Shown here piece after piece: positions 2,533-15,726 of a stretch of DNA of 64,000 nt. The notes below the pieces were generated by a model that did not search any database, was not told where the DNA came from, and saw nothing but the letters and a program-made list of their open reading frames with translations. Source of the DNA: a bacterium (lineage in GTDB: Bacteria > Patescibacteriota > Patescibacteriia > UBA1558 > UBA10009); contig JABHGM010000001.1 of NCBI GenBank assembly GCA_018672055.1, positions 736,977 to 800,976 on the forward strand, written 5' to 3'. Every line of letters begins with the position of its first letter. The stretch's first letter is position 1. The translations under genes and the position numbers were made by a program.

Positions 2533-2946
2533 TTAATCTAGATCAGGTCTTCCGTTATGTAGTTTTCTTTTATCACTTATCTTATTAATATTCATAAAAT
2601 CAATTATTCTTTGTTTTCTCTCATTCTTTTGTTTTGCTTTGAAATAAATTTCTAAAAATACTATTTTTTGAAAACTAGGAAAATATGCATAAATTACTCG
2701 AATACCACTTTTAGCTCCTCTACCTTTTAAACTCTTACATTGAAACTTTTTAATCTTAAAAAATTGTAACTCATCAGTATTACCAACACCTTGAATTTTA
2801 AAAATACTTCCACTATTAATTTCTTTGCCATGAAATAAATCTATACGATATTTCTTATTTACTTCTAAATCTTCAGTTAATGAAGAAAACTTCTTCATTA
2901 ATTTTTTAATATCTCTGGTAAATTCTTTCGTTTCCTCATATTTCAT
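2533..2946 (-). CDS. RelE/ParE-superfamily-like toxin, the downstream partner of the HTH-Panacea protein.
   Basis: 137 aa. Segment LKGRGAKSGIRVIYAYFPSFQKIVFLEIYFKAKQKNE resembles the RelE/HigB core (LKG...G.R.IY......I.LL.I). Abuts the antitoxin-like gene with a 1-bp gap. Confidence 0.45.
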   Translation of the reverse strand: MKYEETKEFTRDIKKLMKKFSSLTEDLEVNKKYRIDLFHGKEINSGSIFKIQGVGNTDELQFFKIKKFQCKSLKGRGAKSGIRVIYAYFPSFQKIVFLEIYFKAKQKNERKQRIIDFMNINKISDKRKLHNGRPDLD

Positions 2947-2947
2947 C

Positions 2948-3709
2948 CTAGTACTGTCTTACAGAAAATTCATCTGTCCTAGAAAAAACAGCTTCATAAT
3001 CAATAACTTTTAAATTATCTGTACCAATCCATGGTACATCTTTATGGGAGTATTCTTTTATTCTAGTTGCATTAAAATCTTTAAATCTTTCAATTTCCCA
3101 ATCAATAAAATCTTTTTCACGAGCAGTAAAACTTGATAAATCTGCATTTCTGAATGGAAGATACTTTTTTTGATCGTGTTGAAAATATTTATTTACAATA
3201 GCCCCTAAATCACCATCTTTTTCCATTTGTTTAACAATTTTTGTGAAAGCTACTGGTGTTGGACCAAAATGATTTTTTATATACTTAGCGCCTATTAACT
3301 GTTCTTCAAACTTTTCATAATAATCAAAATCAATAAAATACATTAATTTACAAATAACAGCTTCACCAACATTAGAACGAGCGCCAATTCGTTCTAAAAT
3401 ATATAATAATACTTCTTTAAATTTCTCTATTCTTTCTTGTGGTACAGAAATACGCATCTCTGGCTTTGGCTTTACTTTCTTTATAGTTTTAGCAAGTTTT
3501 ACTTTTGGTTCTAAATTTTCTTTACCAGCTAAAAAATCATCTAAAGACAATCCAAAAAATTTAGCAAAAGTTTGTGCTTCTTCAACAAGAAGCTTGCGTT
3601 TACCAGCCTCAATTTGTACATAAGTTGGCCTTGATACACCAATTCTTTTTGCTAAAAAATCCTGACTAATACCTTGTTTTTCTCTAAGTTTTTTTAAAAA
3701 AGTAGTCAT
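2948..3709 (-). CDS. Antitoxin-like protein: N-terminal XRE-family HTH fused to a C-terminal Panacea (DUF4065/SocA-like) domain.
   Basis: N-terminus LREKQGISQDFLAKRIGVSRPTYVQIEAGKR is a Cro/C1-type HTH. C-terminus KLMYFIDFDYYEKFEEQLIGAKYIKNHFGPTPVAF...DGDLG matches the DUF4065/Panacea signature. Confidence 0.55.
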   Translation of the reverse strand: MTTFLKKLREKQGISQDFLAKRIGVSRPTYVQIEAGKRKLLVEEAQTFAKFFGLSLDDFLAGKENLEPKVKLAKTIKKVKPKPEMRISVPQERIEKFKEVLLYILERIGARSNVGEAVICKLMYFIDFDYYEKFEEQLIGAKYIKNHFGPTPVAFTKIVKQMEKDGDLGAIVNKYFQHDQKKYLPFRNADLSSFTAREKDFIDWEIERFKDFNATRIKEYSHKDVPWIGTDNLKVIDYEAVFSRTDEFSVRQY

Positions 3710-3879: not shown

Positions 3880-4167
3880 CTAAAAACTATCCTTTAATTT
3901 CTCTAATAGACTAGGTTTACTTTCAACACACTTATCAATTACATCCAAACATTTTGGACAACTAGATGTCCGTTTTATTTTACAATGATTATCAGCTTCA
4001 CAAGGAGTATAATCTCTATTACTAGGTATTACATTTGCATATCGTTCATTACAAGGTACAAGATTTATTTTATAAATTGTATATCCTATAATAAAAGATA
4101 AAATAGATAATACAATAATTATTAATACAATTTTTCTTTGTTGATAATAAGTAAGTTTACTTGTCAT
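3880..4167 (-). CDS. Small membrane-anchored Cys-rich protein.
   Basis: 95 aa. N-terminal TM (IVLIIIVLSILSFIIGYTIY) then 6 Cys. Preceded by a conserved repeat and an 8-codon uORF overlapping its start (ATGA). Confidence 0.4.
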   Translation of the reverse strand: MTSKLTYYQQRKIVLIIIVLSILSFIIGYTIYKINLVPCNERYANVIPSNRDYTPCEADNHCKIKRTSSCPKCLDVIDKCVESKPSLLEKLKDSF

Positions 4168-4240
4168 ATATTTATATTTACTTCTTTCATTCTTTTAATG
4201 GTTTAAGCTGATTTGATTGGTTTTTTATGGTTTTCTTTTT
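4168..4240. repeat. Conserved intergenic repeat, copy 1 (core TTTAAGCTGATTTGATTGGTTTTTTAT).
   Basis: About 90% identical over ~68 bp to 11723..11795. Core shared with 4562..4607 and 5405..5455. Confidence 0.7.
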
Positions 4241-4279
4241 ACTAATTCTCTATTATTAATTTCTTAAACAATAATAAAA

Positions 4280-4561
4280 TTATCTATCAATAATCCAAGT
4301 AATAATTAATAGTATCAATACTATTGAATACACGGAAATTGCAAAACGCCAATTACCTGCCCAATATAAACCCATAACTGTTTTATCAGGATTTTTTTCT
4401 AAAAATGATTTAACAGAAGGATTAAATTTACTTATAAAACGTTCTCTGCTCATGTTAACTTTATGCATACATCTATTACAAATATTATCCTTATTTAAAT
4501 ACTCATTTAAAACTGATTTATTACAGAGTTCGCATTTTGCTAATTTTGTATTGTCTTTCAT
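4280..4561 (-). CDS. Small zinc-ribbon protein with a C-terminal TM helix.
   Basis: 93 aa. CELCNKS...CNRC motif. C-terminal hydrophobic segment ISVYSIVLILLIITWII. Confidence 0.4.
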   Translation of the reverse strand: MKDNTKLAKCELCNKSVLNEYLNKDNICNRCMHKVNMSRERFISKFNPSVKSFLEKNPDKTVMGLYWAGNWRFAISVYSIVLILLIITWIIDR

Positions 4562-4607
4562 ACTTTTATTCTTTTAGTAGTTTAAGCGGATTTGGTTGGT
4601 TTTTTAT
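4562..4607. repeat. Conserved intergenic repeat, copy 2 (core TTTAAGCGGATTTGGTTGGTTTTTTAT).
   Basis: Exact core match to copy 4. Overlaps the stop codon of 4604..4987 and lies just upstream of the 4561 start. Confidence 0.7.
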
Positions 4608-4987
4608 ATAAAATCCTTTAGTTGATTAGGATTACTTTTTAAGTCTACTAATACTAATTTATCAAAACATTCATTTTTAAGCAATATACGTTTTTCAGCT
4701 TCTAATACATAATCATCAAACCATTTAAACTCTTTTTTAAAGTCTATAGCTTCAGTTTTAAGCATATCCCAATTAGTAGGCTTTATCTTATTTAAATAAA
4801 TAAAACAATTTTTATCTAAAAATTGTTTTAAGTATTCTAATGTATTACTTTCTTCTCCTTTACAATGAGTAGTTAACCAATAACATTCATGATTATCTGT
4901 AACATACTTTAAAAACTCATATACATTCTTTGCAGGCTTTAAATCCTTAGTAATTAATACTTGATCTATATCTAAGTAGATGTTCAT
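4604..4987 (-). CDS. Hypothetical small protein with a possible HAD-like N-terminal DxD motif.
   Basis: 127 aa, begins MNIYLDIDQVLI (hhhDxDxT/V-like). Otherwise unrecognised. Confidence 0.35.
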   Translation of the reverse strand: MNIYLDIDQVLITKDLKPAKNVYEFLKYVTDNHECYWLTTHCKGEESNTLEYLKQFLDKNCFIYLNKIKPTNWDMLKTEAIDFKKEFKWFDDYVLEAEKRILLKNECFDKLVLVDLKSNPNQLKDFI

Positions 4988-5388
4988 ATTAATTCTTTAA
5001 TCTTTTTAATAAATTCATCTCCAAATTTATCTATTTCCATATAATCTTTTCTAACCACATGTTTAACACCTAATTTCTCTACTTCTTCATTGTATTCTAC
5101 ATTAGTTGAGATAGCAATTACATTATTCACATTAAATTTGTTTAAATCTAATACATGGAAAGAACCTCCTAATTTACAATCTTTATCTAATATTATTAAA
5201 TCAAAATTATTCTTTTCTAAGCTATTTACATAATCTTTAACCTGTATATACGTAGAAAACACAGTAACTGAGAAATCAAGAGGTTTAGATGTATTAAATA
5301 ACTCTTCTTCTAGTTTAAATAACCTATCCATAATAATAGATAGGGTCTTTAAATCATCTTCTAATATTAATATGTTTAGAGTTTTCAT
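4984..5388 (-). CDS. Orphan response-regulator receiver (CheY-like) domain protein.
   Basis: 134 aa. ILILEDD acidic pocket, DLIILDKD phospho-acceptor region, conserved K near the C-terminus. No kinase or output domain nearby. Confidence 0.5.
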   Translation of the reverse strand: MKTLNILILEDDLKTLSIIMDRLFKLEEELFNTSKPLDFSVTVFSTYIQVKDYVNSLEKNNFDLIILDKDCKLGGSFHVLDLNKFNVNNVIAISTNVEYNEEVEKLGVKHVVRKDYMEIDKFGDEFIKKIKELI

Positions 5389-5404
5389 ATTATATATTAC
5401 TCTT

Positions 5405-5455
5405 TTACTTTTTTTTCTAAGGTTATATCCGGATTTGGTTGGTTTTTATTTTTAA
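5405..5455. repeat. Conserved intergenic repeat, copy 3 (core CCGGATTTGGTTGGTTTTTAT).
   Basis: Shares the 21-bp core with copies 1, 2 and 4. Lies between the stop of 5482..5832 and the start of 4984..5388. Confidence 0.6.
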
Positions 5456-5481
5456 TCTTGATTTAATTATTCCTGCTGCTT

Positions 5482-5832
5482 TTAACTAAATAACCAAATA
5501 TAAATATTTTTACAATAATCATAATGTTTAATAGTAAAATCTCTTTCATAAATACCTATATAACCTTCACTAGATAAATATATCAATAAAAAGAAAGCAA
5601 CTAAATATAGTAAAGGTACAATATAATATATTATTTTTACATTAATACTATACTTATGTAATTTATAAGCAATAAATGTGCTTATGAATAATAGAACAGT
5701 TTGAAAAAATAATACCCCATTAATAACAGTACAATCCGTATGTTCGTTTATTTTATTAAAAATTAAACTAAATCCATATATAGCTAAAATACCTAACAGA
5801 AATTGTATAATAATTAATAATACCTTTTTCAT
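5482..5832 (-). CDS. Small integral membrane protein (about 3 TM), last gene of the mod-res-nuclease operon.
   Basis: 116 aa, hydrophobic throughout. Starts 4 bp after the nuclease gene. Confidence 0.45.
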   Translation of the reverse strand: MKKVLLIIIQFLLGILAIYGFSLIFNKINEHTDCTVINGVLFFQTVLLFISTFIAYKLHKYSINVKIIYYIVPLLYLVAFFLLIYLSSEGYIGIYERDFTIKHYDYCKNIYIWLFS

Positions 5833-5836
5833 ATAT

Positions 5837-6583
5837 TTAAATAATTTTATTTACTTCATCTCTATACTTACAATAATCACATTCAATACCAGCTTTAGGT
5901 ATACTTTTACTTTTTAAACATGTGTCAGCTTCTATAATCGCTTCATCTACCCAATTATCGTTCCCTTCATATGGTATAAGGGTTACTTCAAACTCTAACT
6001 TAGCATCAAAGGCTTCTTTATCTGTAATACCATTACAATACACAAAATAGCCTGTATTTGAGACTTTAAAGCCACTTTGTCTAAGTAGCCACTGATATAC
6101 TTCCATTTGCCTCTTATATGATATTTGCCAGTCTTGATCTAAAGCTTCAATCTTACCTTCTTTACTAGTAGATTTATAATCTACTACATATAATATACCT
6201 TTTTTATCTACCCAGATATCATCTATAGCGCCAAATATTATTAAACCTGTTTTTTTATGATTAACACGTATTCCTTTAAAATTCTCTCTCCATTCATCCA
6301 TCATATCGTGTTTAAAAGGTACTAAATCTATATTATATGATTTGAGTAATGGATGTACCTTATTCTTAGCTCTATGTATATCAAATTCTTTTTTGAGTAA
6401 AGTATCTACTGCACTATTTAAATTAAAAGGATAACCTGGAGGTCTTTTAATTCCAAGCTTATTATCTAAATAAAAGCATTTAGGACATTCAATAAATAAA
6501 TCTATTTTAGATCTAGATAATTTCCATTGACTTCCTTTATAATTCCATTCTGCTTTTCTTGGGATGTTATAGTATTGGGACAT
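5837..6583 (-). CDS. Standalone Cas4/RecB-family PD-(D/E)xK nuclease with a putative 4-Cys Fe-S cluster.
   Basis: Motifs GAIDDIWVD (motif I), VVDYKST (DYK, motif II), RQMEVYQWLL (QhxxY, motif III). N-terminal CPKC plus C-terminal C...CDYC. 1-bp gap after res. Confidence 0.6.
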   Translation of the reverse strand: MSQYYNIPRKAEWNYKGSQWKLSRSKIDLFIECPKCFYLDNKLGIKRPPGYPFNLNSAVDTLLKKEFDIHRAKNKVHPLLKSYNIDLVPFKHDMMDEWRENFKGIRVNHKKTGLIIFGAIDDIWVDKKGILYVVDYKSTSKEGKIEALDQDWQISYKRQMEVYQWLLRQSGFKVSNTGYFVYCNGITDKEAFDAKLEFEVTLIPYEGNDNWVDEAIIEADTCLKSKSIPKAGIECDYCKYRDEVNKII

Positions 6584-6584
6584 G

Positions 6585-9503
6585 TTATATTAATTTACCC
6601 TTAGCATTTGCTTCTGTAACTTTAGCTAATTCACAAATTTCACTTATTGAAGCATTGTTATCTTTTAGTCCATAAAAATGATTTTGACCTAACAAAATAT
6701 ATATCCATTTTCTTTCCATTCTATCTTTTGGATTTAATTTATTTATCCTTTTAACCCAATCAAGTGTTGCTAATTGTTTTTGTTTAACATTCAAATCATT
6801 TAAATCTTTATCCGATTTTGTTTCAATCAAATAAATTTTTTCTTTTGTTTTCACTATGAAATCTGGATAATATAATGATAATAAGCCGTCAGTTCTAATA
6901 TAAGTTATATGTGCGAATGGATGACGATATTCATCAATTTTTATAAAACTTTCAACTTTTGAATCTCCGTCGATATATTCAATAAAATCTTTTTCAAGAC
7001 CTCCTTTATTTGATGGAAATGGTAGTCTTTCATAAATACTTTTAGCTACCTTTAAAGAAAAGCTTTCTCTCATTTTCATTTCCGTAATTTCTGAAAAATT
7101 TTGTTTTCTTACAATCCCTTCGCTAGATTCTATGCTACTCTGCATTTCAAAAATTAGTTTTCCAACTTCTTTTACAATATGCTGAGTAACGATTCCATTT
7201 TTTAATAAGAGAACTTTCCAATTACTGCCATCAAATGGATCAAACCTTTTACCAAACAATTTTGTTCTAATATATTTATCAATAGTTTTTACTAAGTTTA
7301 TATTGTTTATTTGCATAGTAGGAAAAGCTCTAGCAGCTTTTCTACCAATACGTCCCATCCTATTCACTACTGTATTTAAAACTTTTTCTAAATATTCATT
7401 ATAACTTTGTGAATTGAATAAATTTGCATTTACTATATAATCACCAAATCTTGTTTTTACAGTAACCTCTTCTGAAAAAAATGATTCACCATCTTTTTTA
7501 AAAAATTGTTGCAGCTGTTCTAATTTAAAAGCCTCAAATTTTTCTAATTTATCTAGTTTCAAATCTGTAGATTTTAACTCCTCATCTGAATCTTTAACTA
7601 TATATGGCCAAAACAAATCATATTTTTCATAACCATCTTTAAGTTTAACTTTTATTAAATCTCCAACTACATCTGAACCAGAAGTAATTTCTACATTAGA
7701 CTCACCAATCAAACCTTCTGCTAAGAGATCGTCATAAAATTGAACAAAAGATGGATGTTCAATAATCGATAATATATCTAAATAATTAGTTGGCTCCTGT
7801 TTATCTAATAATAATTTTTTTCGATTCTCATTTTTAATATCCTGAAATTCTGGATCCCTCCACATCAAACGTAAACCTCTTCCAATTGTTTGCTCTAATA
7901 ATATTGGTGCATCAGAAGCTCTTAAAGGTACTATTACACATATATTATTCACATCAAAACCTTCTCTAAGCATCAAAACAGAAACTACTACTCTAGGATT
8001 TTTATGTTTATCCATATTAAACAGCCTTTGTTTAATATCAAACCATTCTTTTTCTGGCACTTCACCTTTTTTATTAGAGTCAATTTGCATGACCTCTTCT
8101 ACTTTTAATCCTTCTTGAATTAAAAATTCTGTTACTAAAGGTGTAACTTTAGTATCCTCGCACATTACCATCATTTTAGGATGCTTATTACTCTCTCCTT
8201 TTTCATCCCCAAAAAATTCTACAAAATGTTTTTCTAACTTGTTCAATTTTTTTAATCCAGCTCTTAACATTAATCTTTGACCATCTGATAAATCTATGGG
8301 TTTATTACCCTCTCTTATAGCTTTAAATTCTAATGGTAATTCTGCAATCTCCTTTCTTTTATCAATTGCTATAATTTTTACCATTCCTTTTTGAATTGCT
8401 GTTTTTAATTCAAAATCAACAATAATATAAGGAAAAAAATGTTTTGTTCTTTTTTGCCCACTTCCGGTAGTATCATAGGGCGTTGCAGAAAAATCGACTT
8501 GCATCATCTTTTTCTCTTTTCCAGCTGTAATTTGATTTAAACTTTTCTGCCATTCTACTTCTTGTATTTCTCCATAACTTTTATTTTCATGAATATGATG
8601 AGCTTCATCATTCATAATTACTAAATCATCTAAATCTACTAAATACTCTAACTCTTTACCTCTAGCATAAGCAGCATCTAAAGCTCTTAAATCATTGCCA
8701 GTTGCTTTTCCTGGGCTTATTGGCATAATGTCACGAATTATAGAACTTGGATTTTCTAATGGACTATTTAATTCTTCATCTAATTTTTCTTTTTCTAAAA
8801 ATAAATGCCAATTAGTAATACCTATCATTCCATCACCTGTAACTTTTGTTCCAATTTCCTCCTTCTTAGCTACACTACCTTGAATAAAACCAAATAACTC
8901 ATCTCTATAACTTGGTGGTATAAAAACATCTTGAAATAAATAAAAATCAGATTTCTCAAATTCTCTTTCACCTTTATTATTTTCTTTTCCTAAAAATGCA
9001 TCTAATAGTCTCTCGTAAACTATTAATCCAGGTGCAACCAAAAGAAAATTCTTTGAATATCTATTAGTTTTTTCTTCCTCATATTTAGCGTTTAAGTATT
9101 GCCAAATCATTAAAGCGTGCATAACCCAAGTTTTACCCGTACCTGTAGCCATCTTAATGGCATATTTGGGAATTTCATATTTTGGTTTTTTTAATTCTAC
9201 TGAATTAATTTCTAACAGCAATTCTGAATTAATATTCTGATATATATCTACCACTGATGTAGTTTTTAAAATTTCATGAAGGTAAATCACATTCAAAATT
9301 GCTTGCTTCTGACCTTCGTGAAAATTTATTTTACGAGTATCAATATGTGGCTCCTTAAACCAAAAATTTAAAAGATCTTTAGTAATAGGAGAAACCTTCG
9401 ATATAATTTCCCCGCTATCCCAAAATCCTAAAACTACTTCAGTTATATTTTTAGCTAATTTTAATGGAATATCTCGCGTTCCTATATTTAATGGTGTTGG
9501 CAT
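6585..9503 (-). CDS. res: Type III restriction endonuclease Res subunit (SF2 DEAH helicase plus C-terminal PD-ExK endonuclease).
   Basis: Walker A MATGTGKT, DEAH box (IMNDEAHHI). C-terminal YYPDF...IYLIETK endonuclease motif. Lies directly downstream of mod, the Type III arrangement. Confidence 0.8.
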   Translation of the reverse strand: MPTPLNIGTRDIPLKLAKNITEVVLGFWDSGEIISKVSPITKDLLNFWFKEPHIDTRKINFHEGQKQAILNVIYLHEILKTTSVVDIYQNINSELLLEINSVELKKPKYEIPKYAIKMATGTGKTWVMHALMIWQYLNAKYEEEKTNRYSKNFLLVAPGLIVYERLLDAFLGKENNKGEREFEKSDFYLFQDVFIPPSYRDELFGFIQGSVAKKEEIGTKVTGDGMIGITNWHLFLEKEKLDEELNSPLENPSSIIRDIMPISPGKATGNDLRALDAAYARGKELEYLVDLDDLVIMNDEAHHIHENKSYGEIQEVEWQKSLNQITAGKEKKMMQVDFSATPYDTTGSGQKRTKHFFPYIIVDFELKTAIQKGMVKIIAIDKRKEIAELPLEFKAIREGNKPIDLSDGQRLMLRAGLKKLNKLEKHFVEFFGDEKGESNKHPKMMVMCEDTKVTPLVTEFLIQEGLKVEEVMQIDSNKKGEVPEKEWFDIKQRLFNMDKHKNPRVVVSVLMLREGFDVNNICVIVPLRASDAPILLEQTIGRGLRLMWRDPEFQDIKNENRKKLLLDKQEPTNYLDILSIIEHPSFVQFYDDLLAEGLIGESNVEITSGSDVVGDLIKVKLKDGYEKYDLFWPYIVKDSDEELKSTDLKLDKLEKFEAFKLEQLQQFFKKDGESFFSEEVTVKTRFGDYIVNANLFNSQSYNEYLEKVLNTVVNRMGRIGRKAARAFPTMQINNINLVKTIDKYIRTKLFGKRFDPFDGSNWKVLLLKNGIVTQHIVKEVGKLIFEMQSSIESSEGIVRKQNFSEITEMKMRESFSLKVAKSIYERLPFPSNKGGLEKDFIEYIDGDSKVESFIKIDEYRHPFAHITYIRTDGLLSLYYPDFIVKTKEKIYLIETKSDKDLNDLNVKQKQLATLDWVKRINKLNPKDRMERKWIYILLGQNHFYGLKDNNASISEICELAKVTEANAKGKLI

Positions 9504-9514
9504 ATAATTTTGAT

Positions 9515-11095
9515 TTATAATTCTTCTATTACAATGCTTTCAAAACCAAAAACATCTACTGCTTTAACACATACTTTTCTTTTTGATTTTTTAGGCACTC
9601 TTAATGTAGTTTTTTTTATTACATGATATGGATCATTATCATTCTCTATATTTTCTCTATAATCTTGCCATTTGCTCCTAAATGTTTTACCGTCATAATC
9701 TGGATCAATACTCCAATATTCAATAAGGCTTAAAGGATCGCTAGATATAATTTCTTGTAGCTTCTCTTTGTCTTTATCGTCTAATGGTATATTGTCTGGG
9801 GACAACAAAACATAATTTTCTAATTCAATATTTATAACCTCCTCGTCCTTTTTACCCCCTACTTCTAATTGAATAGGTTTTATAGTTAAATATTGTAACG
9901 ATGAAAATCTAACTTTTCCACTATCAACTAGCTTATCATAACCTTTCTTACTTTTTAGTGTGTCTAATAAATCTGGAGGAATTACTAAAACCTCTAATTT
10001 ATCATCATTTAAGCTTTGAATAGCTTGAGTAATATCATAAGTAAAATTCCAGCCTAAAACTATGACCTTTTTCCACCCGCCCATAAATGAATTACGTAAT
10101 TCCATAGCTTTTTGTAAAGTATTTAAGCCAGTTAATTTATTAGGAGAATCAACAAAAATCAAAGTTTTAGAATCCTTGATATAACCTATATTCCTAATAT
10201 AACTATCTTCATCTTTAAAGGGAATTGCACCATACAATTGCAAAACTACATGAGATAAATCACCTATTCTTTTATATAATTTTGAAGAGGCTAAAACTTC
10301 CTTTTGATAATCTCCTATAGATTGATATAAAAATGGTTTTGTATCTTCGTCAATAAATCTTTTTCTAGAAATTAAATTAGCTGGCTTCCCTATATCAGAT
10401 ATAATCCACCTTCTATTTAATTTTTCAGAAACCGAACCTATAGTTCCAGAACCTGCAAAAAAATCAGCAACAATAGAATTTTCATTCGAAGATGATTCTA
10501 TTATCCGTTGAATAAGTGATTCTGGTTTTTGAGTTTTATAGTTTTTATTTTCAGAACTCATTGGATTAAGCATACTAACATACCATACATCTCCAACTCT
10601 CCTGCCTTTGAACTCCGCTATAATATCATCTTCAACTGGCTCTCTATCGTGTAATTTTATAAACTTTTTCAAATAAGGTTTAAATTTTCCATCATCATAA
10701 GGTGCATTATTTGCAAATATTTTACCATCTTTAATATAATTCTCCCATCTTTTTATTACACCACTATCTGTTCTTTCTTTTTCATAAAGAATATTAAAAA
10801 TAGCATTTTGACTTTTTGTATAATAAAAAATCATCTGACTTCTTTTTGGAAAATTATTTTCACTTTCCACCCACGACCCTTGATATTCCCAAGTAATATG
10901 TGATCCAAAATTATTTTTACCAAAAATATCATCCAACAATAATTTTACATAGTGACCAACATGCCAATCTATATGTACATATATGGATCCTTTGTCTGAT
11001 AATAATTCTTTCATTAAAGCAAGTCTAGGATACAACATTTTAAGATATGAGACCGTCCCTTCTCTCCAGGTATCAGAATATGCAAATTGTTCCAT
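9515..11095 (-). CDS. mod: Type III N6-adenine DNA methyltransferase Mod, C-terminal portion. In frame with 11108..11476 but separated from it by a TAG stop.
   Basis: [62 protein letters not shown] parallels the region after DPPY in Type III Mod proteins. Later FAGSGT (SAM-binding motif I). Confidence 0.75.
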
Positions 11096-11107
11096 AGTAG
11101 TAGGTTT

Positions 11108-11476
11108 CTACTCCAAATCTTTTCCTTTTAATTTAATCTTGATTCTATAATCAGCTTTAGAATCGAACGGTGGATCAATATATATAAGATCTATCTTGCC
11201 TCTTAAAGAATCTAAATTACTAGCTGGATCACCAGCTAGTAAAGCTTGGATTACTAGTAAATTATCTCCATAAATTAAACGATTAATCCAATCGACTTCT
11301 GATTCCTCAGGCATTCTCCCACTAAACAAACCAGCGGAGTCCTTAGCTGGTAAAACCAATTCATTTGTTTGTAATGTAAGTTTGCTTTTACTAGATAACC
11401 TTTCTAATATCTGTTCTACCTCTTTTTTACCCTCTTTTACGATCTTTGGTAATTCTTCTATTAAAGATTTTGTCAT
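11108..11476 (-). pseudogene. mod: Type III Mod, N-terminal portion ending right after catalytic motif IV (DPPF). An in-frame TAG at 11108-11110 separates it from the rest of mod.
   Basis: IDLIYIDPPFDSKADY (DPPF motif). Same reading frame as 9515..11095, with only 4 codons between the TAG and the downstream ATG. Confidence 0.65.
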
Positions 11477-11537
11477 ATAATATAAATTTATTTATTTACT
11501 CTTATTTTTCCACTTTTTACCTAAGTTGTCAATAAAA

Positions 11538-11566
11538 ACAGAGTTTTACTCTGTTTTTATATTATA
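11538..11566 (-). terminator. Intrinsic terminator after the 813-aa gene. A probable mod promoter (TTGACA) follows on the minus strand.
   Basis: AAAAACAGAGTTTTACTCTGTTTTT hairpin with a T-run on the minus strand. Confidence 0.45.
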
Positions 11567-11722
11567 ATTAACTAAATTATTAATTAGTATCTGATTCATT
11601 TTTTAGTATAAAAGCTTGTTTATCATTTTTCTCATTAAATATACATGATGGTTCTAACATATGAAAATGCCACTTCTTACCTTCTTTATGTAGCTTATAT
11701 GCTATTTCTTTTATTTTATTTT

Positions 11723-11795
11723 ATTTATATTTACTTCTTTCATTCTTTTAAGGATTTAAGCGGATTTGGTTGGTTTTTTATGTTTTTCTTTTTGA
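11723..11795. repeat. Conserved repeat, copy 4, overlapping the stop codon of the 813-aa gene.
   Basis: ATATTTACTTCTTTCATTCTTTTAAGGATTTAAGCGGATTTGGTTGGTTTTTTATGTTTTTCTTTTTG is about 90% identical to 4168..4240. Confidence 0.7.
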
Positions 11796-14219
11796 TTTAG
11801 ATTTGTTTAATTTTTTCTTTCTTTTTCTTTCCCATTCTTCGTGCCACTCTGTATGCCAAGAAGGCATTTTCAAATAAATTTGTTGCGTGGCATTGCATAG
11901 ATTAATAAGACCTGGTATACGATCATGTTCTTTCTTTGTTTTTTTATCCCAGCAATAAGGTGGTCCCAATTGATTTAATAACTCATTACCAGTTAAAATT
12001 AAAACAGGATTAATAGGTCTTTCTGACTTCCAATATTTTCTTCCTGATTTAGTGATTTTTTTTAGTTCTATAATTTCATTTCTTGTTAGTGATTTTCGTA
12101 AAGTACTAAAAACTAATATAGCGCCTGGAAAAGTTTTTGCTAGATATCGCATTCTTGTAAAATCTTTTTTTTCAAACATTCCATATGTTTTGCACTCACT
12201 AAACAATAAGCCATCTTTTTTCTGACCGTAAACTGAATCCTGCCAAAATGCTGCAAAATCTGCTTCTATATTTTCTTTGTCAGCAGTAATAGCAGAAAAA
12301 CTTAATAATGGTGTTATACGCATCGTGGTCATTTTATATTCATTGAAAAAATCTAGTGCTAAAAGAACTGCATAAGCACCTTCTGCATAATTCGGTATAC
12401 TAAATGGTCCAACAGTCTTATAACACCATATAGAGTTTTCTAAATTACCAATAGCAGAAAAATCATTGAGACATAATTGACACAAAAAGTTATTACTAAT
12501 TTTTTCAAGCTCAAACCAGGACTTTCTTGAACAATATGGACATTTAATACGTATCCCTAATTTAAATACTCCTTTTTCAACTAAATAATTATGTAACTTG
12601 TCACCTCTTGTTTTATCACTCAATCTTCTTTTTATTTCGCCAATTGGCATTTCTCTTTCTTGATTGATCTTATTATTTGCTTTTGGACTTCCAGCTATAT
12701 TTACACTACCACCATTCATATGCTCAAAAATGTTTAGTAGCTTTTCATTTTTTAAAGTTGATAAATAACCATTAAGTTGTTTATGAATTTGCTTTGCTAA
12801 TTTTCCTGAAGACGATAATTTTGGTTCCCATCCTAAATCTTTCAGCCAAGCAATAACAATATTTTCAGATAATGGAATATTTATTGTTTCGTTAGAATTA
12901 TCTTCAACAAGTCTCACGAGTCCGTTATTTCCAACTCGCCAATTACCTCGTAAAGCCATAAGGCCAGATATCTCTCGTATAAAATTTTTAGCAGAAGATT
13001 TAGGAAAAACTTCTGCAATATATTCATCTGCACCATAAAAACTAAATATAACTTCATTTGCACAACGTGGATTTCCATGATAACTGTATTTATCAGCAAA
13101 ATCTGGCAGTAAAGTAGTGAATCTTATATTATTTTTCAAATCTGCAACATCAAATGATTCTTCTTGACTACCATATATATTGTCTGGTATTGCACCATCT
13201 TTATCACGAGCCCACTCATCCCAAACCCTTGGATACCAATGTTGTAGTACGTAAAAACTATCTTTAGATAGGTCATTAGAATCTGGTTTTATTTTTATGG
13301 TCTTTGCAAAATTTTCAACCTCCTCCATCGTACAATTACGTGATCTGATAATTGAAGCCCTATCACAAACGGTCGGATTATGTTTCCATGGACGACGATA
13401 CATTTTTAAAAAATTAATAACAATTTTTTTTATTACAGGCTCACTCTTCATCTGTTTTGCTACAGGCATCACCACTCTACCCATTGCCCTTAAATTCCAA
13501 TAATCAACTATATCTTCAACCTTGTTTGCATCCATAAAGTAAATACAAGCATCTCTACCAAAACGTGTATGGCTATTATTATTTATTTTGTGTAGCGTAA
13601 TTCTACGTGGAAACAAAATATTGTTCTTTAACATTTTATTTAAATTTTTAATTTCAAATTTTGGAGTCTCTATTTCAAGTGGTCCATAATAATGTTTTTT
13701 TAAATTTGGAATTACCTCAGGTAAAATTTCACCAAAAAAACTAGACCAAAATAAAGAATATTTTCTTGGTAATTCAGGAAATGCAATTTTCATTGGATAT
13801 TTCATTTTATATTTAAAGTCTTGTTCAAAAATATCATCTAATATTTCATAAATACCAAGCCCATATGAAGGGATTAAATTAAAATCTTCATTTATATTAT
13901 CCCAAATTTCATTTGATTTTATAATTTTTAAACCACTATCAACAATATATTTAGGAACTGATTTTGATAATTGTATAAGAATATCCGGATCAAATGCATC
14001 AAGATAACCGAGTATTACATCTTTTGCTAAAGGAGCTTTTATGGTTCCATCTTTCCATGTAGCAGGCATTATTTTATATAATTGTATAATTGGAAAAAAA
14101 GATCCCCCCCACAAAGTTGAGCTTAATTGAATTGCCTTTTTAACTTGTGTCGAACTTTTTGGATCAACTAAAAAAGCAATTTTCAATGGCCTAGTTTTAA
14201 TATTAATTGTACCTATCAT
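11778..14219 (-). CDS. Large cytoplasmic protein of unknown function with an internal zinc ribbon and a basic C-terminal tail.
   Basis: 813 aa with no TM and no Walker motifs. CPYCSRKS...CQLC zinc-ribbon. C-terminal RKRKKKLNKSKSKRKT. Sits between the glycan cluster and the R-M operon with its own terminator. Confidence 0.5.
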   Translation of the reverse strand: MIGTINIKTRPLKIAFLVDPKSSTQVKKAIQLSSTLWGGSFFPIIQLYKIMPATWKDGTIKAPLAKDVILGYLDAFDPDILIQLSKSVPKYIVDSGLKIIKSNEIWDNINEDFNLIPSYGLGIYEILDDIFEQDFKYKMKYPMKIAFPELPRKYSLFWSSFFGEILPEVIPNLKKHYYGPLEIETPKFEIKNLNKMLKNNILFPRRITLHKINNNSHTRFGRDACIYFMDANKVEDIVDYWNLRAMGRVVMPVAKQMKSEPVIKKIVINFLKMYRRPWKHNPTVCDRASIIRSRNCTMEEVENFAKTIKIKPDSNDLSKDSFYVLQHWYPRVWDEWARDKDGAIPDNIYGSQEESFDVADLKNNIRFTTLLPDFADKYSYHGNPRCANEVIFSFYGADEYIAEVFPKSSAKNFIREISGLMALRGNWRVGNNGLVRLVEDNSNETINIPLSENIVIAWLKDLGWEPKLSSSGKLAKQIHKQLNGYLSTLKNEKLLNIFEHMNGGSVNIAGSPKANNKINQEREMPIGEIKRRLSDKTRGDKLHNYLVEKGVFKLGIRIKCPYCSRKSWFELEKISNNFLCQLCLNDFSAIGNLENSIWCYKTVGPFSIPNYAEGAYAVLLALDFFNEYKMTTMRITPLLSFSAITADKENIEADFAAFWQDSVYGQKKDGLLFSECKTYGMFEKKDFTRMRYLAKTFPGAILVFSTLRKSLTRNEIIELKKITKSGRKYWKSERPINPVLILTGNELLNQLGPPYCWDKKTKKEHDRIPGLINLCNATQQIYLKMPSWHTEWHEEWERKRKKKLNKSKSKRKT

Positions 14220-14319
14220 ACTTATAAATTGAATATATTATTATCAGAACCAGAGAAGGGTCATATTTCCTCTTATTAAATAAAAAATAATAGCTAATAC
14301 TATAAAATTGATATCCATA

Positions 14320-15726
14320 TCACAACCCAATAACCTCCCCATCCATATCATGAAGTACCTCTACATTAAAATGATTTAATATAGTAGGTGCATAATCTAA
14401 TATATTAATATCTTTCTTACTATTTAATACACCTTCACCATAAGCTAAGAATATACCTTTTTTTTCATTTTCACCAGTCCAATGGTCTGGAGCCTCAAAA
14501 ACATGTTTAGAGCCTAAAGAACCACTAAAATGAGTATGAGGAGCTTGATCTACTATTAAATCAGGAGCTTTACTTAAATCAGAAGACTTATATATTTCTT
14601 CCCGAGTAAATACCTTATTTACTATACTCATACCCTTATACTCTAATTCTTCTAACTCACGTATTAATTTATTCTTAAATTCTAAGTCTTTACTTAGTAA
14701 GTATATAGGGCCTTGACCAGAAGCAAAACATTTAGAATTATCCCAATCTATTTTATCTGCTTTACCTGCATACATTACTTGTCCTTCTTTATTTGGTATC
14801 ATTTCTTGTACTTTACGTGGTACTAGTTTTTTAGCTAGTTCTTTTAAATGTAGCTTAGTAAATAGTTTAATTAAAGATTCTCGGTTAATACCTATTTTTT
14901 CTAGTTTGGAACTAGTATTATCTTGTTTAATCTTTAAATAGCCTTTTTCTTGTAAATACGTATTAATATTGAATTTAAATTTAATTTCATTAGTACCATG
15001 ATCAGACATTAAAAAGAATAATCTATCTGGGTACTTAGTAATTAATGAATTAATACCCTCATCTATTATTTGCCAAGCTTTAAATACTTTATCATCTCCA
15101 TAGTGGTAATGCTGTAATACGTTTATTAAATAAACAGCTACCATAAAGAAATCAAAGTTACCTTCTTTTAAAAGATACTCAGCAACTTCAAAACGTACTT
15201 TAATTAGTCTATATATTTCATCTATTACTGAAGTCTCATCTTTTTTCATTAAACTAATATTCTGAGGTAATGCTCTATAATCAAATTTATTCTTTAAAAG
15301 CTTTTCTAAAGGTTCAGGATAGGTATACTTAGATTCCATAGCATCTGGGCCACCTGAAACCATTACTCCATTTATTTTATGTGGCGGATAAGTTGTAGGC
15401 ATATTTACAACGCCTACTCGGTAACCAGCATCGGATAAGTAATCAAATATTTCTTTACCTTTAAAATTGTCAGAAGAAGGTATATATATTTTTCTATTGG
15501 CTACATCTACGTTTTCCCACCAATAAACACCAAGTTTAGCTGGATTTAAACCTGTAGAAAAACATTTCCAATTTGGTGATGTTACTGGAGGAAGTTGTGA
15601 TTCTTGAATACCCCAAGTTCCTTGTGTCTGTAGTTTCTTAAATGTAGGTAGTTTATCTTCATCAATCCATTTTTGAATATAGTTCCAACTACCACCATCT
15701 AAACCTATTACTATTACTTTCTGCAT
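14320..15726 (-). CDS. Alkaline-phosphatase-superfamily enzyme (type I phosphodiesterase/nucleotide pyrophosphatase-like), last gene of the glycan operon.
   Basis: N-terminal IVIGLDGGSW metal-binding motif. SGGPDAM and LMSDHGTN motifs typical of the AlkP core. Overlaps the upstream GT gene by 13 nt. Confidence 0.55.
   Translation of the reverse strand: MQKVIVIGLDGGSWNYIQKWIDEDKLPTFKKLQTQGTWGIQESQLPPVTSPNWKCFSTGLNPAKLGVYWWENVDVANRKIYIPSSDNFKGKEIFDYLSDAGYRVGVVNMPTTYPPHKINGVMVSGGPDAMESKYTYPEPLEKLLKNKFDYRALPQNISLMKKDETSVIDEIYRLIKVRFEVAEYLLKEGNFDFFMVAVYLINVLQHYHYGDDKVFKAWQIIDEGINSLITKYPDRLFFLMSDHGTNEIKFKFNINTYLQEKGYLKIKQDNTSSKLEKIGINRESLIKLFTKLHLKELAKKLVPRKVQEMIPNKEGQVMYAGKADKIDWDNSKCFASGQGPIYLLSKDLEFKNKLIRELEELEYKGMSIVNKVFTREEIYKSSDLSKAPDLIVDQAPHTHFSGSLGSKHVFEAPDHWTGENEKKGIFLAYGEGVLNSKKDINILDYAPTILNHFNVEVLHDMDGEVIGL

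Follow-up and report, generated by a model that had tools for sequence, protein, structure and literature searches.

A widespread Cas4-like nuclease gene of candidate phyla radiation bacteria and the varied defence cassettes upstream of it

The window analysed here is a stretch of 64,000 nucleotides from a bacterium of the Patescibacteriota (NCBI GenBank assembly GCA_018672055.1, contig JABHGM010000001.1, positions 736,977 to 800,976), in which a Type III restriction-modification (RM) gene pair, mod and res, is followed by a gene for a 248-aa PD-(D/E)XK nuclease and by a 116-aa open reading frame (ORF) for a small membrane protein. A preliminary description, made from the sequence alone, had read the last two genes as an accessory or effector module of the Type III operon. 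Our survey of related loci leads us, with somewhat more belief than doubt, to a different reading, namely that the nuclease is a core solo Cas4-like end nuclease of candidate phyla radiation (CPR) bacteria with a repair context, that the 5' side of its gene is a favoured site for defence genes, and that the window holds a decaying Type III case of this layout. The 248-aa gene would then be this organism's copy of a widespread and strongly conserved CPR solo Cas4-like nuclease of the RecB family, directly before which a horizontally acquired mod-res cassette would have been placed, mod being broken afterwards by a nonsense codon. The adjacency would reflect a defence-island layout in which cassettes of varied type have time and again come to lie directly before the conserved nuclease gene, by placement or by exchange, in several CPR lineages and in the clade of the window above all. 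The nuclease does not belong to Type III systems, either as a subunit or as an accessory reserved for them; it would mark a docking site of a defence island and possibly act as a generic helper.

The genes of the region are all encoded on the minus strand, in a window with a G+C content of about 27%. The components of the locus, in the order of transcription, are as follows.

11108-11476, minus strand: Mod N-terminal fragment, 122 aa, with the DPPF motif IV at 11165-11176 (PADLOC MTase_III, 2.1e-11)
9515-11095, minus strand: Mod C-terminal fragment, 526 aa, with the rest of the N6_N4 methyltransferase domain, the target-recognition region and the C-terminus; FAGSG at 10445-10459
6585-9503, minus strand: Type III Res, 972 aa, with Walker A at 9129-9143, DEAH at 8598-8609 and the C-terminal PD...ExK at 6816-6869
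5837-6583, minus strand: solo Cas4-like/RecB-family PD-(D/E)XK nuclease, 248 aa, assigned by PF12705, motifs and predicted fold; CPKC at 6476-6487, GAIDD at 6218-6232, DYK at 6173-6181, QMEVY at 6095-6109, Cys222 within 5912-5926, CDYC at 5870-5881
5482-5832, minus strand: ORF of 116 aa with three hydrophobic segments, a lineage-specific orphan

Defence cassettes upstream of the nuclease gene

The neighbourhood survey covered 173 related loci, reduced to 153 with distinct nucleases, the relatives of more than 75% identity being gathered through exact-protein look-ups. Defence cassettes lie directly upstream of the nuclease gene in 26 of the 153 distinct loci and represent RM systems of Types I, IIG, III and IV, Shedu, and a defence reverse transcriptase. 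In each of the eight contexts inspected from close relatives (at least 70% identity), the nuclease gene is directly preceded, on its own strand, by a restriction gene or system, seven of them being recognisable RM systems and the eighth a truncated contig with only the Type I-associated YgjP. The types vary and comprise Type IIG with a PLD-SNF2 helicase, Type II, Type III and a probable Type I remnant. The upstream contexts are listed here under the locus labels of the survey.

L082: helicase with Type III mod/res
L170/L171: Type III mod/res unlike that of L082
L085, L087 and the P0020 locus: PLD-SNF2 helicase with a Type IIG MmeI-like enzyme
L172: YgjP-like gene at the contig end (probable Type I remnant)
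L173: Dcm/HpaII/Vsr with a Dam-like methylase
L090: Type IIG with Shedu SduA
L076, a more distant member: Type III with an AbiP2-type reverse transcriptase
Other distant members: GmrSD in L100 and L105, Type I HsdR in L029 and L067

The adjacency of res and the nuclease gene, for which the preliminary description had proposed a search in related genomes, does recur, namely in L082 and L170/L171, in L175 with a 150-aa ORF in between, and in L076 with the reverse transcriptase in between. The latter is a 498-aa RVT_1 protein encoded at 6496-7989 of L076 (Moraniibacteriota), and it is probably the source of a PADLOC AbiP2/DRT match (1.8e-174) among the upstream neighbours, for which the output names no protein.

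A positional profile, which is partly circular since its 24 RM or defence queries were taken from upstream genes, was obtained by searching these proteins against all ORFs of the loci and gives matches for 11% of the ORFs at position -1, 9% at -2, 6% at -3 and about 3.5% each at -4 to -6, with 0 of 193 ORFs matched at -7 to -10 and 2 of 922 at +1 to +10. With the source loci left out, RM genes are found upstream in 13 independent loci and downstream in one. About 80% of the nuclease loci have no recognisable RM gene upstream. In a neighbour-joining tree of the nucleases the 26 defence-type loci are clustered, yet they require about 17 parsimony state changes, and they never overlap with the MgtC, ATP-cone-Mrr or MGMT contexts described below. 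We also compared DNA identities between the nuclease genes, which are 80-87% within the Type III-linked group, 82% within the Type IIG-linked group and 76-82% between groups, giving no clear signal that nuclease alleles group by RM type.

The closest intact relative of the window cassette is found in L175, where Res is 88% identical to that of the window and the N-terminus of the intact Mod is 93% identical to the 122-aa fragment. The DNA similarity of about 80% between the two loci extends from 14 bp before the mod ATG to the res stop codon, the target-recognition segment being divergent. A PDDEXK_1 gene lies downstream of the L175 cassette, after the 150-aa ORF, and its product is only 60% identical to the window nuclease, which makes the two as distant as nucleases from different CPR classes. 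Because Res is 88% and the nuclease 60% identical, cassette and nuclease have different histories, although they came to stand in the same arrangement. The intervening 150-aa ORF (L175 12930-13382) has no family match, and its ...IEVKGD... segment resembles a small PD-(D/E)xK nuclease. Two other loci, L176 and L177, encode a Res that is 66% identical to that of the window and have no nuclease gene nearby. Beside the same-family Type III cassette of L177, a Yanofskybacteria contig, we find Multi_ubiq, ThiF and BubE genes of the ubiquitin-like Bil type (13886-15678).

The comparison of L082 with L170 (L082 10000-11540, L170 5100-5860) reaches down to the strain level. The two loci are 99.9% identical over 9.2 kb, starting exactly after the stop codon of the L170 nuclease gene, whereas on the other side of this point the nuclease genes are 87% identical, evenly along the gene, and the RM cassettes cannot be aligned. 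In L082 the nuclease gene is additionally followed by three small ORFs of 109, 75 and 65 aa. Taken together, the L175, L176/L177 and L082/L170 comparisons indicate a recombination-active junction at which one cassette is exchanged for another, in some cases with the nuclease gene included. An RM-nuclease operon of fixed composition would not produce such a pattern.

The nuclease family and its usual neighbours

The 248-aa protein had been described as a PD-(D/E)xK nuclease with GAIDD, DYK and QxxxY motifs, and this identification is borne out. The protein matches PF12705 (PDDEXK_1) at 1.3e-12, with 48.6 bits against a gathering cut-off of 22, and when 20 diverse members are aligned, the motifs GAIDD (D121/D122), D135-Y-K137 and Q159xxxY163 prove invariant, so that the catalytic D/E/K residues, whose loss had been named as a possible objection, are all in place. 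The relation to Cas4 proper is more distant: Cas4 models match weakly (PADLOC Cas4, 4e-9), the score for the Cas4 equivalog TIGR00372 is 24.4 bits and lies below the cut-off of 65, and PF01930, precomputed for some homologues, is not reported for the window nuclease. Five cysteines (33, 36, 222, 235 and 238) are likewise invariant in the 20-sequence alignment. They sit at both termini, as do the cluster ligands of Cas4 and AddB, in agreement with the earlier remark on their placement, but their spacing, C-x2-C ... C-x12-C-x2-C, is non-canonical, the canonical Cas4 pattern for the Fe-S cluster being C ... C-x2-C-x5-C, with one cysteine N-terminal and three C-terminal.

The AlphaFold model of the nuclease has a mean pLDDT of 86, and its best Foldseek matches are the nuclease domains of AdnAB and AddB, Cas4, RecE, MGME1 and EXO5, at a probability of about 1.0, TM-scores of 0.35-0.48 and sequence identities of 12-19%. 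A sequence search of the family against the PDB gave no match, and the family is placed by fold comparison alone. With CRISPR Cas4 (PDB IDs 4IC1, 4R5Q, 7MI4 and 8D3L), AddB, AdnAB and EXO5 the window nuclease shares the fold class, the D...D/ExK and QxxxY motifs and the cysteines at both ends. It differs from them in its surroundings, as the window is without cas1, cas2 and a CRISPR array and no helicase partner was identified for it; the 248 aa comprise the nuclease domain only, with no helicase fused to it. The motifs and the modelled fold identify the protein as a RecB/Cas4-like nuclease with intact catalytic residues. They suggest a metal-dependent DNA nuclease acting on DNA ends, probably carrying an Fe-S or metal cluster, with likely roles in double-strand-break repair or recombination and in the degradation of linear DNA.

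An association of the nuclease with CRISPR was considered and rejected, given the missing array, the lack of any Cas model match among the neighbours and the sub-threshold score for the Cas4 equivalog. The 64-kb window contains no CRISPR-like tandem array, and no cas genes were found among the neighbours in it. CRISPR is described as rare in CPR bacteria (PMC6509639).

The nuclease has more than 8000 homologues, the best 120 of which are 63-83% identical and spread across CPR classes. Where the source is named, they come from Parcubacteria, Kaiserbacteria, Magasanikbacteria, Paceibacterota and the "Patescibacteria group". A scan with one genome per species finds a relative in at least 597 CPR/Patescibacteria species, and the best 80 nuclease loci are each from a different species genome, in keeping with one copy per genome. 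A phage or mobile-element origin was rejected, as only 11 viral relatives occur in 2.9 million IMG/VR contigs, against the at least 597 species genomes.

The genes that usually surround the nuclease were classified with Pfam. At position -1 (143 loci) the most frequent families are MgtC (29/143) and ATP-cone with Mrr_cat (12-13/143), RM genes being few (ResIII 4, Eco57I 2, YgjP 2 and GmrSD 2). Position -2 (127 loci) is occupied by Mrr_cat in 17, ATP-cone in 14, MnmA in about 7 and N6_N4_Mtase in 5, and position +1 (137 loci) by the MGMT-type DNA_binding_1 in 22 and UDG in 6. The usual context of the nuclease is thus one of housekeeping genes, and the downstream MGMT and UDG neighbours suggest DNA repair. 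Because the family is CPR-wide and mostly found beside genes other than those of restriction, the nuclease cannot be called a Type III-specific protein.

Outside the defence-type loci a recurring block can be seen, in which an ATP-cone and Mrr_cat protein lies up to three genes upstream of the nuclease in 46 of the 153 loci. MgtC occurs within the same distance upstream in 31 loci, and an 87-aa MGMT-type DNA-binding protein up to two genes downstream in 24. PADLOC gave no match for the ATP-cone/Mrr-like protein.

The interrupted Type III cassette and the membrane ORF

The mod-res pair was initially taken for a textbook Type III system, and this holds for the gene order and for Res. Mod is an N6-adenine methyltransferase encoded upstream of res (PF01555, 1.6e-39; PADLOC MTase_III, 5e-58 for the 526-aa part and 2e-11 for the 122-aa part). 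Res is a superfamily 2 (SF2) helicase (PF04851, ResIII, 4e-15; Helicase_C; PADLOC REase_III, 2e-26) with GTGKT at aa 121-125, DEAH at aa 299-302 and the C-terminal YPDF...IETK at aa 879-896. Its RE_endonuc match is weak (0.0028), and its best model, the BPTD_3080 restriction endonuclease, is matched in part, with 206 bits against a cut-off of 800.

What had been missed is that a single in-frame TAG at 11108-11110 cuts mod into the DPPF-bearing part of 122 aa and the part of 526 aa, whose ATG comes four codons after the TAG. All Mod homologues are continuous proteins of 620-700 aa that align across the position of the stop, and at 100% identity only the truncated form of 526 aa is on record, from 66 contigs. 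In EcoP15I-type enzymes Mod is required for both methylation and restriction, and the window lacks the intact Mod reading frame that a Type III system needs. Because mod carries the in-frame TAG, the window system is not an intact textbook Type III unit, and to judge by its sequence it has probably lost its activity, unless it works as a split enzyme. Recoding or read-through of the TAG was rejected, as no other gene pair of the window is divided by a TAG. As a stop codon TAG is normal there, though less used than the others (TAA 48, TGA 7, TAG 5), and the window holds no suppressor tRNA, its only tRNA being a tRNA-Glu.

Compared with the canonical Type III systems EcoP15I and EcoP1I, the window shares the mod-then-res order, the DPPF and FxGxG motifs of Mod and, in Res, the SF2 helicase with Walker A, DEAH and the C-terminal PD...ExK, and it differs by the interruption of Mod between motif IV (DPPF) and the remainder of the catalytic domain. 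Neither a Cas4-like nuclease nor a membrane protein is a component of these systems, and the L176 and L177 cassettes do without the nuclease. The mod-res cassette was acquired horizontally and mod has since been split by a nonsense codon; otherwise the Type III system of the window is ordinary.

The layout given in the preliminary description, in which the operon runs on at 1 bp and then 4 bp into the nuclease and the membrane ORF, is confirmed, with 11 bp between mod and res and no terminator-like sites seen from mod through the membrane ORF. Two candidate regulatory sites lie before mod.

11504-11532, minus strand: promoter-like site, TTGACA, 17 nt, TG-extended AAAAAT, upstream of the mod start codon
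11532-11560: hairpin followed by a T-run, terminator-like, between the upstream gene orf813 and mod, dividing orf813 from the mod-res unit

The promoter-like site is the best consensus match in 4000-12200, a ranking that comes from a consensus scan only and carries no evidence of function. The nuclease gene is probably cotranscribed with the mod-res cassette from a promoter upstream of mod. The step from tight spacing to a single operon has to be downgraded all the same, because tight spacing and co-orientation are the norm at nuclease loci: in 87% of 143 homologous loci the gene before the nuclease has the same orientation, the median gap being about 20 bp, and the defence-type neighbours, 42 co-oriented against 3 opposed and with short gaps, look the same as this CPR background.

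The 116-aa ORF has three hydrophobic segments by hydropathy, in line with the 3-TM membrane protein described before. It has no Pfam, NCBIfam or PADLOC match, a HMMER search of 1.84 billion cluster representatives returned only the ORF itself and one weak match (1e-5), and no homologue occurs in any of the 173 related loci. By these searches the ORF is an unrelated orphan and not a conserved partner of the nuclease. The genes that follow the nuclease in relatives are different ones.

L082 and L085: HNH/PtuB-like protein of 108-109 aa
L087: 290-aa PADLOC PDC-S18 candidate
L175: response regulator

A conserved small partner downstream of the nuclease was accordingly sought and rejected, the 116-aa ORF being unlike the 108-109-aa HNH-like, the 290-aa PDC-S18 and the 133-aa proteins. 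The suggestion of an abortive membrane effector is left without basis, because the ORF is an orphan that is missing downstream of the nuclease in every relative, and a conserved co-occurrence with nuclease genes was not found. Defence candidates of other kinds do lie downstream in the clade of the window, namely the PDC-S18 candidate, the HNH/PtuB-like proteins and, in L085, a GmrSD.

Alternative explanations, related systems and neighbouring genes

Two observations count against the reading that we prefer. The upstream RM enrichment is strong and one-sided (11%, 9% and 6% at -1, -2 and -3 against 2/922 downstream), and a purely passive hotspot does not account for cassettes abutting the start of the nuclease gene so often. 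Furthermore, the L082/L170 nuclease allele was exchanged together with the cassette, which would also fit the nuclease as cargo.

Both observations lend weight to the main rival, which we regard as a serious possibility of clearly lower probability, that the nuclease is a generic restriction helper cooperating with whichever cassette lies upstream. It would resect or degrade cut DNA ends or repair self-inflicted breaks, as RecBCD and AddAB do after restriction elsewhere, and selection for co-expression or co-transfer would keep the cassettes immediately 5' of its gene. This explanation is attractive for the one-sided enrichment, which spans -1 to -6, and for its precedents, which are the aid given to Argonaute by ACE1 (PMC12094033) and the occurrence of UvrD-Cas4 fusions with Type III Mod/Res and of DPANN solo Cas4 beside RM genes (PMC5704561). 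It is also consistent with the restriction gene or system upstream in all eight close-relative contexts, with an association that arose on many branches (the roughly 17 changes for 26 loci), with the joint replacement of nuclease allele and RM cassette between the near-identical L082 and L170 strains, and with the downstream defence candidates in L087, L082 and L085. The roughly 80% of loci lacking a recognisable upstream RM gene, together with the stand-alone members of the same mod-res family in L176 and L177, speak against it. The co-orientation (42 against 3) and short gaps match the CPR background (87%, median 20 bp), and in the window the nuclease is intact while its partner mod has a nonsense codon.

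A bolder version, which we put forward as a speculative and rather improbable idea, is that interchangeable defence cassettes of CPR bacteria dock at the nuclease gene as at a fixed point and share it as their downstream partner. New cassettes would come in directly on its 5' side, possibly through recombination that uses the highly conserved nuclease gene as its anchor, and the nuclease would supply a common end-processing or degradation step. If true, this would amount to a plug-in architecture of immunity in the reduced genomes of CPR bacteria.

Chance adjacency, with a mobile RM cassette landing beside an unrelated housekeeping gene of a compact genome, appears improbable. Tight spacing is to be expected in CPR genomes, which are compact and co-oriented, and most family members are not beside RM genes, but chance would hardly place RM genes upstream in 13 independent loci and downstream in one, with 0/193 across -7 to -10, nor give upstream restriction of differing types in all eight close-relative contexts, nor set the closely related L175 cassette before a nuclease gene that is a diverged copy of this one.

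The preliminary model, which joins the nuclease and the 116-aa membrane protein in an accessory or effector module dedicated to the Type III system, with Cas4-like end processing coupled to an abortive membrane effector as an example, could appeal to the gaps of 1 bp and 4 bp without an intervening terminator-like site and to the res-nuclease adjacency in L082, L170 and L175, but is largely refuted by the neighbourhood survey and retains very little probability, the membrane ORF being an orphan missing from every related locus, unrelated genes following the nuclease in relatives (HNH-like, PDC-S18, response regulator), the CPR-wide nuclease being paired just as often with non-Type III cassettes, and the same-family cassettes of L176 and L177 having no nuclease gene nearby.

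The preferred reading, a core CPR nuclease with a favoured defence site on its 5' side, connects to several known systems. Hudaiberdiev et al. 2017 (PMC5704561), in the passages available to us, describe solo Cas4 and PF12705 Cas4-like nucleases in CPR bacteria and DPANN archaea, report that solo Cas4 genes evolve mostly vertically and adjoin RM genes in several DPANN genomes, and propose uncharacterised defence or repair functions for them. The window nuclease is likewise a stand-alone protein of Cas4-family fold outside CRISPR loci in a small CPR genome, and differs from the solo Cas4 of these passages in passing only PF12705 and not TIGR00372 (24 bits against 65) and in the spacing of its five invariant cysteines. 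According to the same passages, UvrD-Cas4 fusions with a PF12705 domain are commonly found together with the Mod and Res genes of Type III systems; a PF12705-type domain genomically linked to Type III genes is thus shared, whereas in the fusions the domain is joined to a superfamily 1 helicase, and the window nuclease is a stand-alone protein of 248 aa with a link that is not Type III-specific. A solo Cas4 of Methanosarcina has been described as an Fe-S-containing DNA nuclease (PMC12501428). ACE1, a Cas4-family protein that assists Argonaute defence (PMC12094033), is similarly a nuclease encoded beside a DNA-targeting defence nuclease, for which it acts as a helper. Its fold similarity to the window nuclease is weaker (TM-score of about 0.25), its partner is different, and it is specific to Argonaute loci, whereas the window nuclease family lies mostly outside defence loci.

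Solo Cas4 in CPR bacteria and links of Cas4-like proteins to restriction systems have thus been known since 2017, as the cited passages of PMC5704561 attest. Those passages do not mention varied defence cassettes recurring upstream of the gene in CPR, and what the present analysis adds is this recurrent, type-independent placement directly before the nuclease gene, together with the strain-level swapping. We regard this as a modest lead and not as a new system. The role of the widespread CPR solo Cas4-like gene is a question already raised in the same passages of PMC5704561, and the present locus and its relatives offer a testable handle on whether the protein is a repair enzyme, a general restriction helper or a landmark of defence islands.

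Further genes of the window lie around the locus. Only one other gene stays near the nuclease across relatives, and it is given as context, without being claimed as a functional part.

4604-4987, minus strand: orf127, 127 aa, with an N-terminal DIDxVL, HAD-like; no family match

Homologues of orf127 that are 46-53% identical lie downstream of the nuclease in L082, L085, L087, L076 and L175, with varying genes in between. A 134-aa ORF at 4984-5388 (minus strand) has a receiver-domain-like N-terminus (MKTLNILILEDD...) and no Pfam match; the Response_reg protein directly after the nuclease in L175 has 136 aa and shows no BLAST-level similarity to it. Directly upstream of the mod promoter, the 813-aa orf813 (11778-14219, minus strand) has no Pfam, NCBIfam or PADLOC match, and its only homologue among the fetched loci is in L001, an identical copy of the window locus. 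A few genes downstream of the nuclease, at 2533-3709 (minus strand), a 253-aa protein with HTH_3 and SocA/Panacea domains is followed by a 137-aa ORF, the two resembling a toxin-antitoxin pair.

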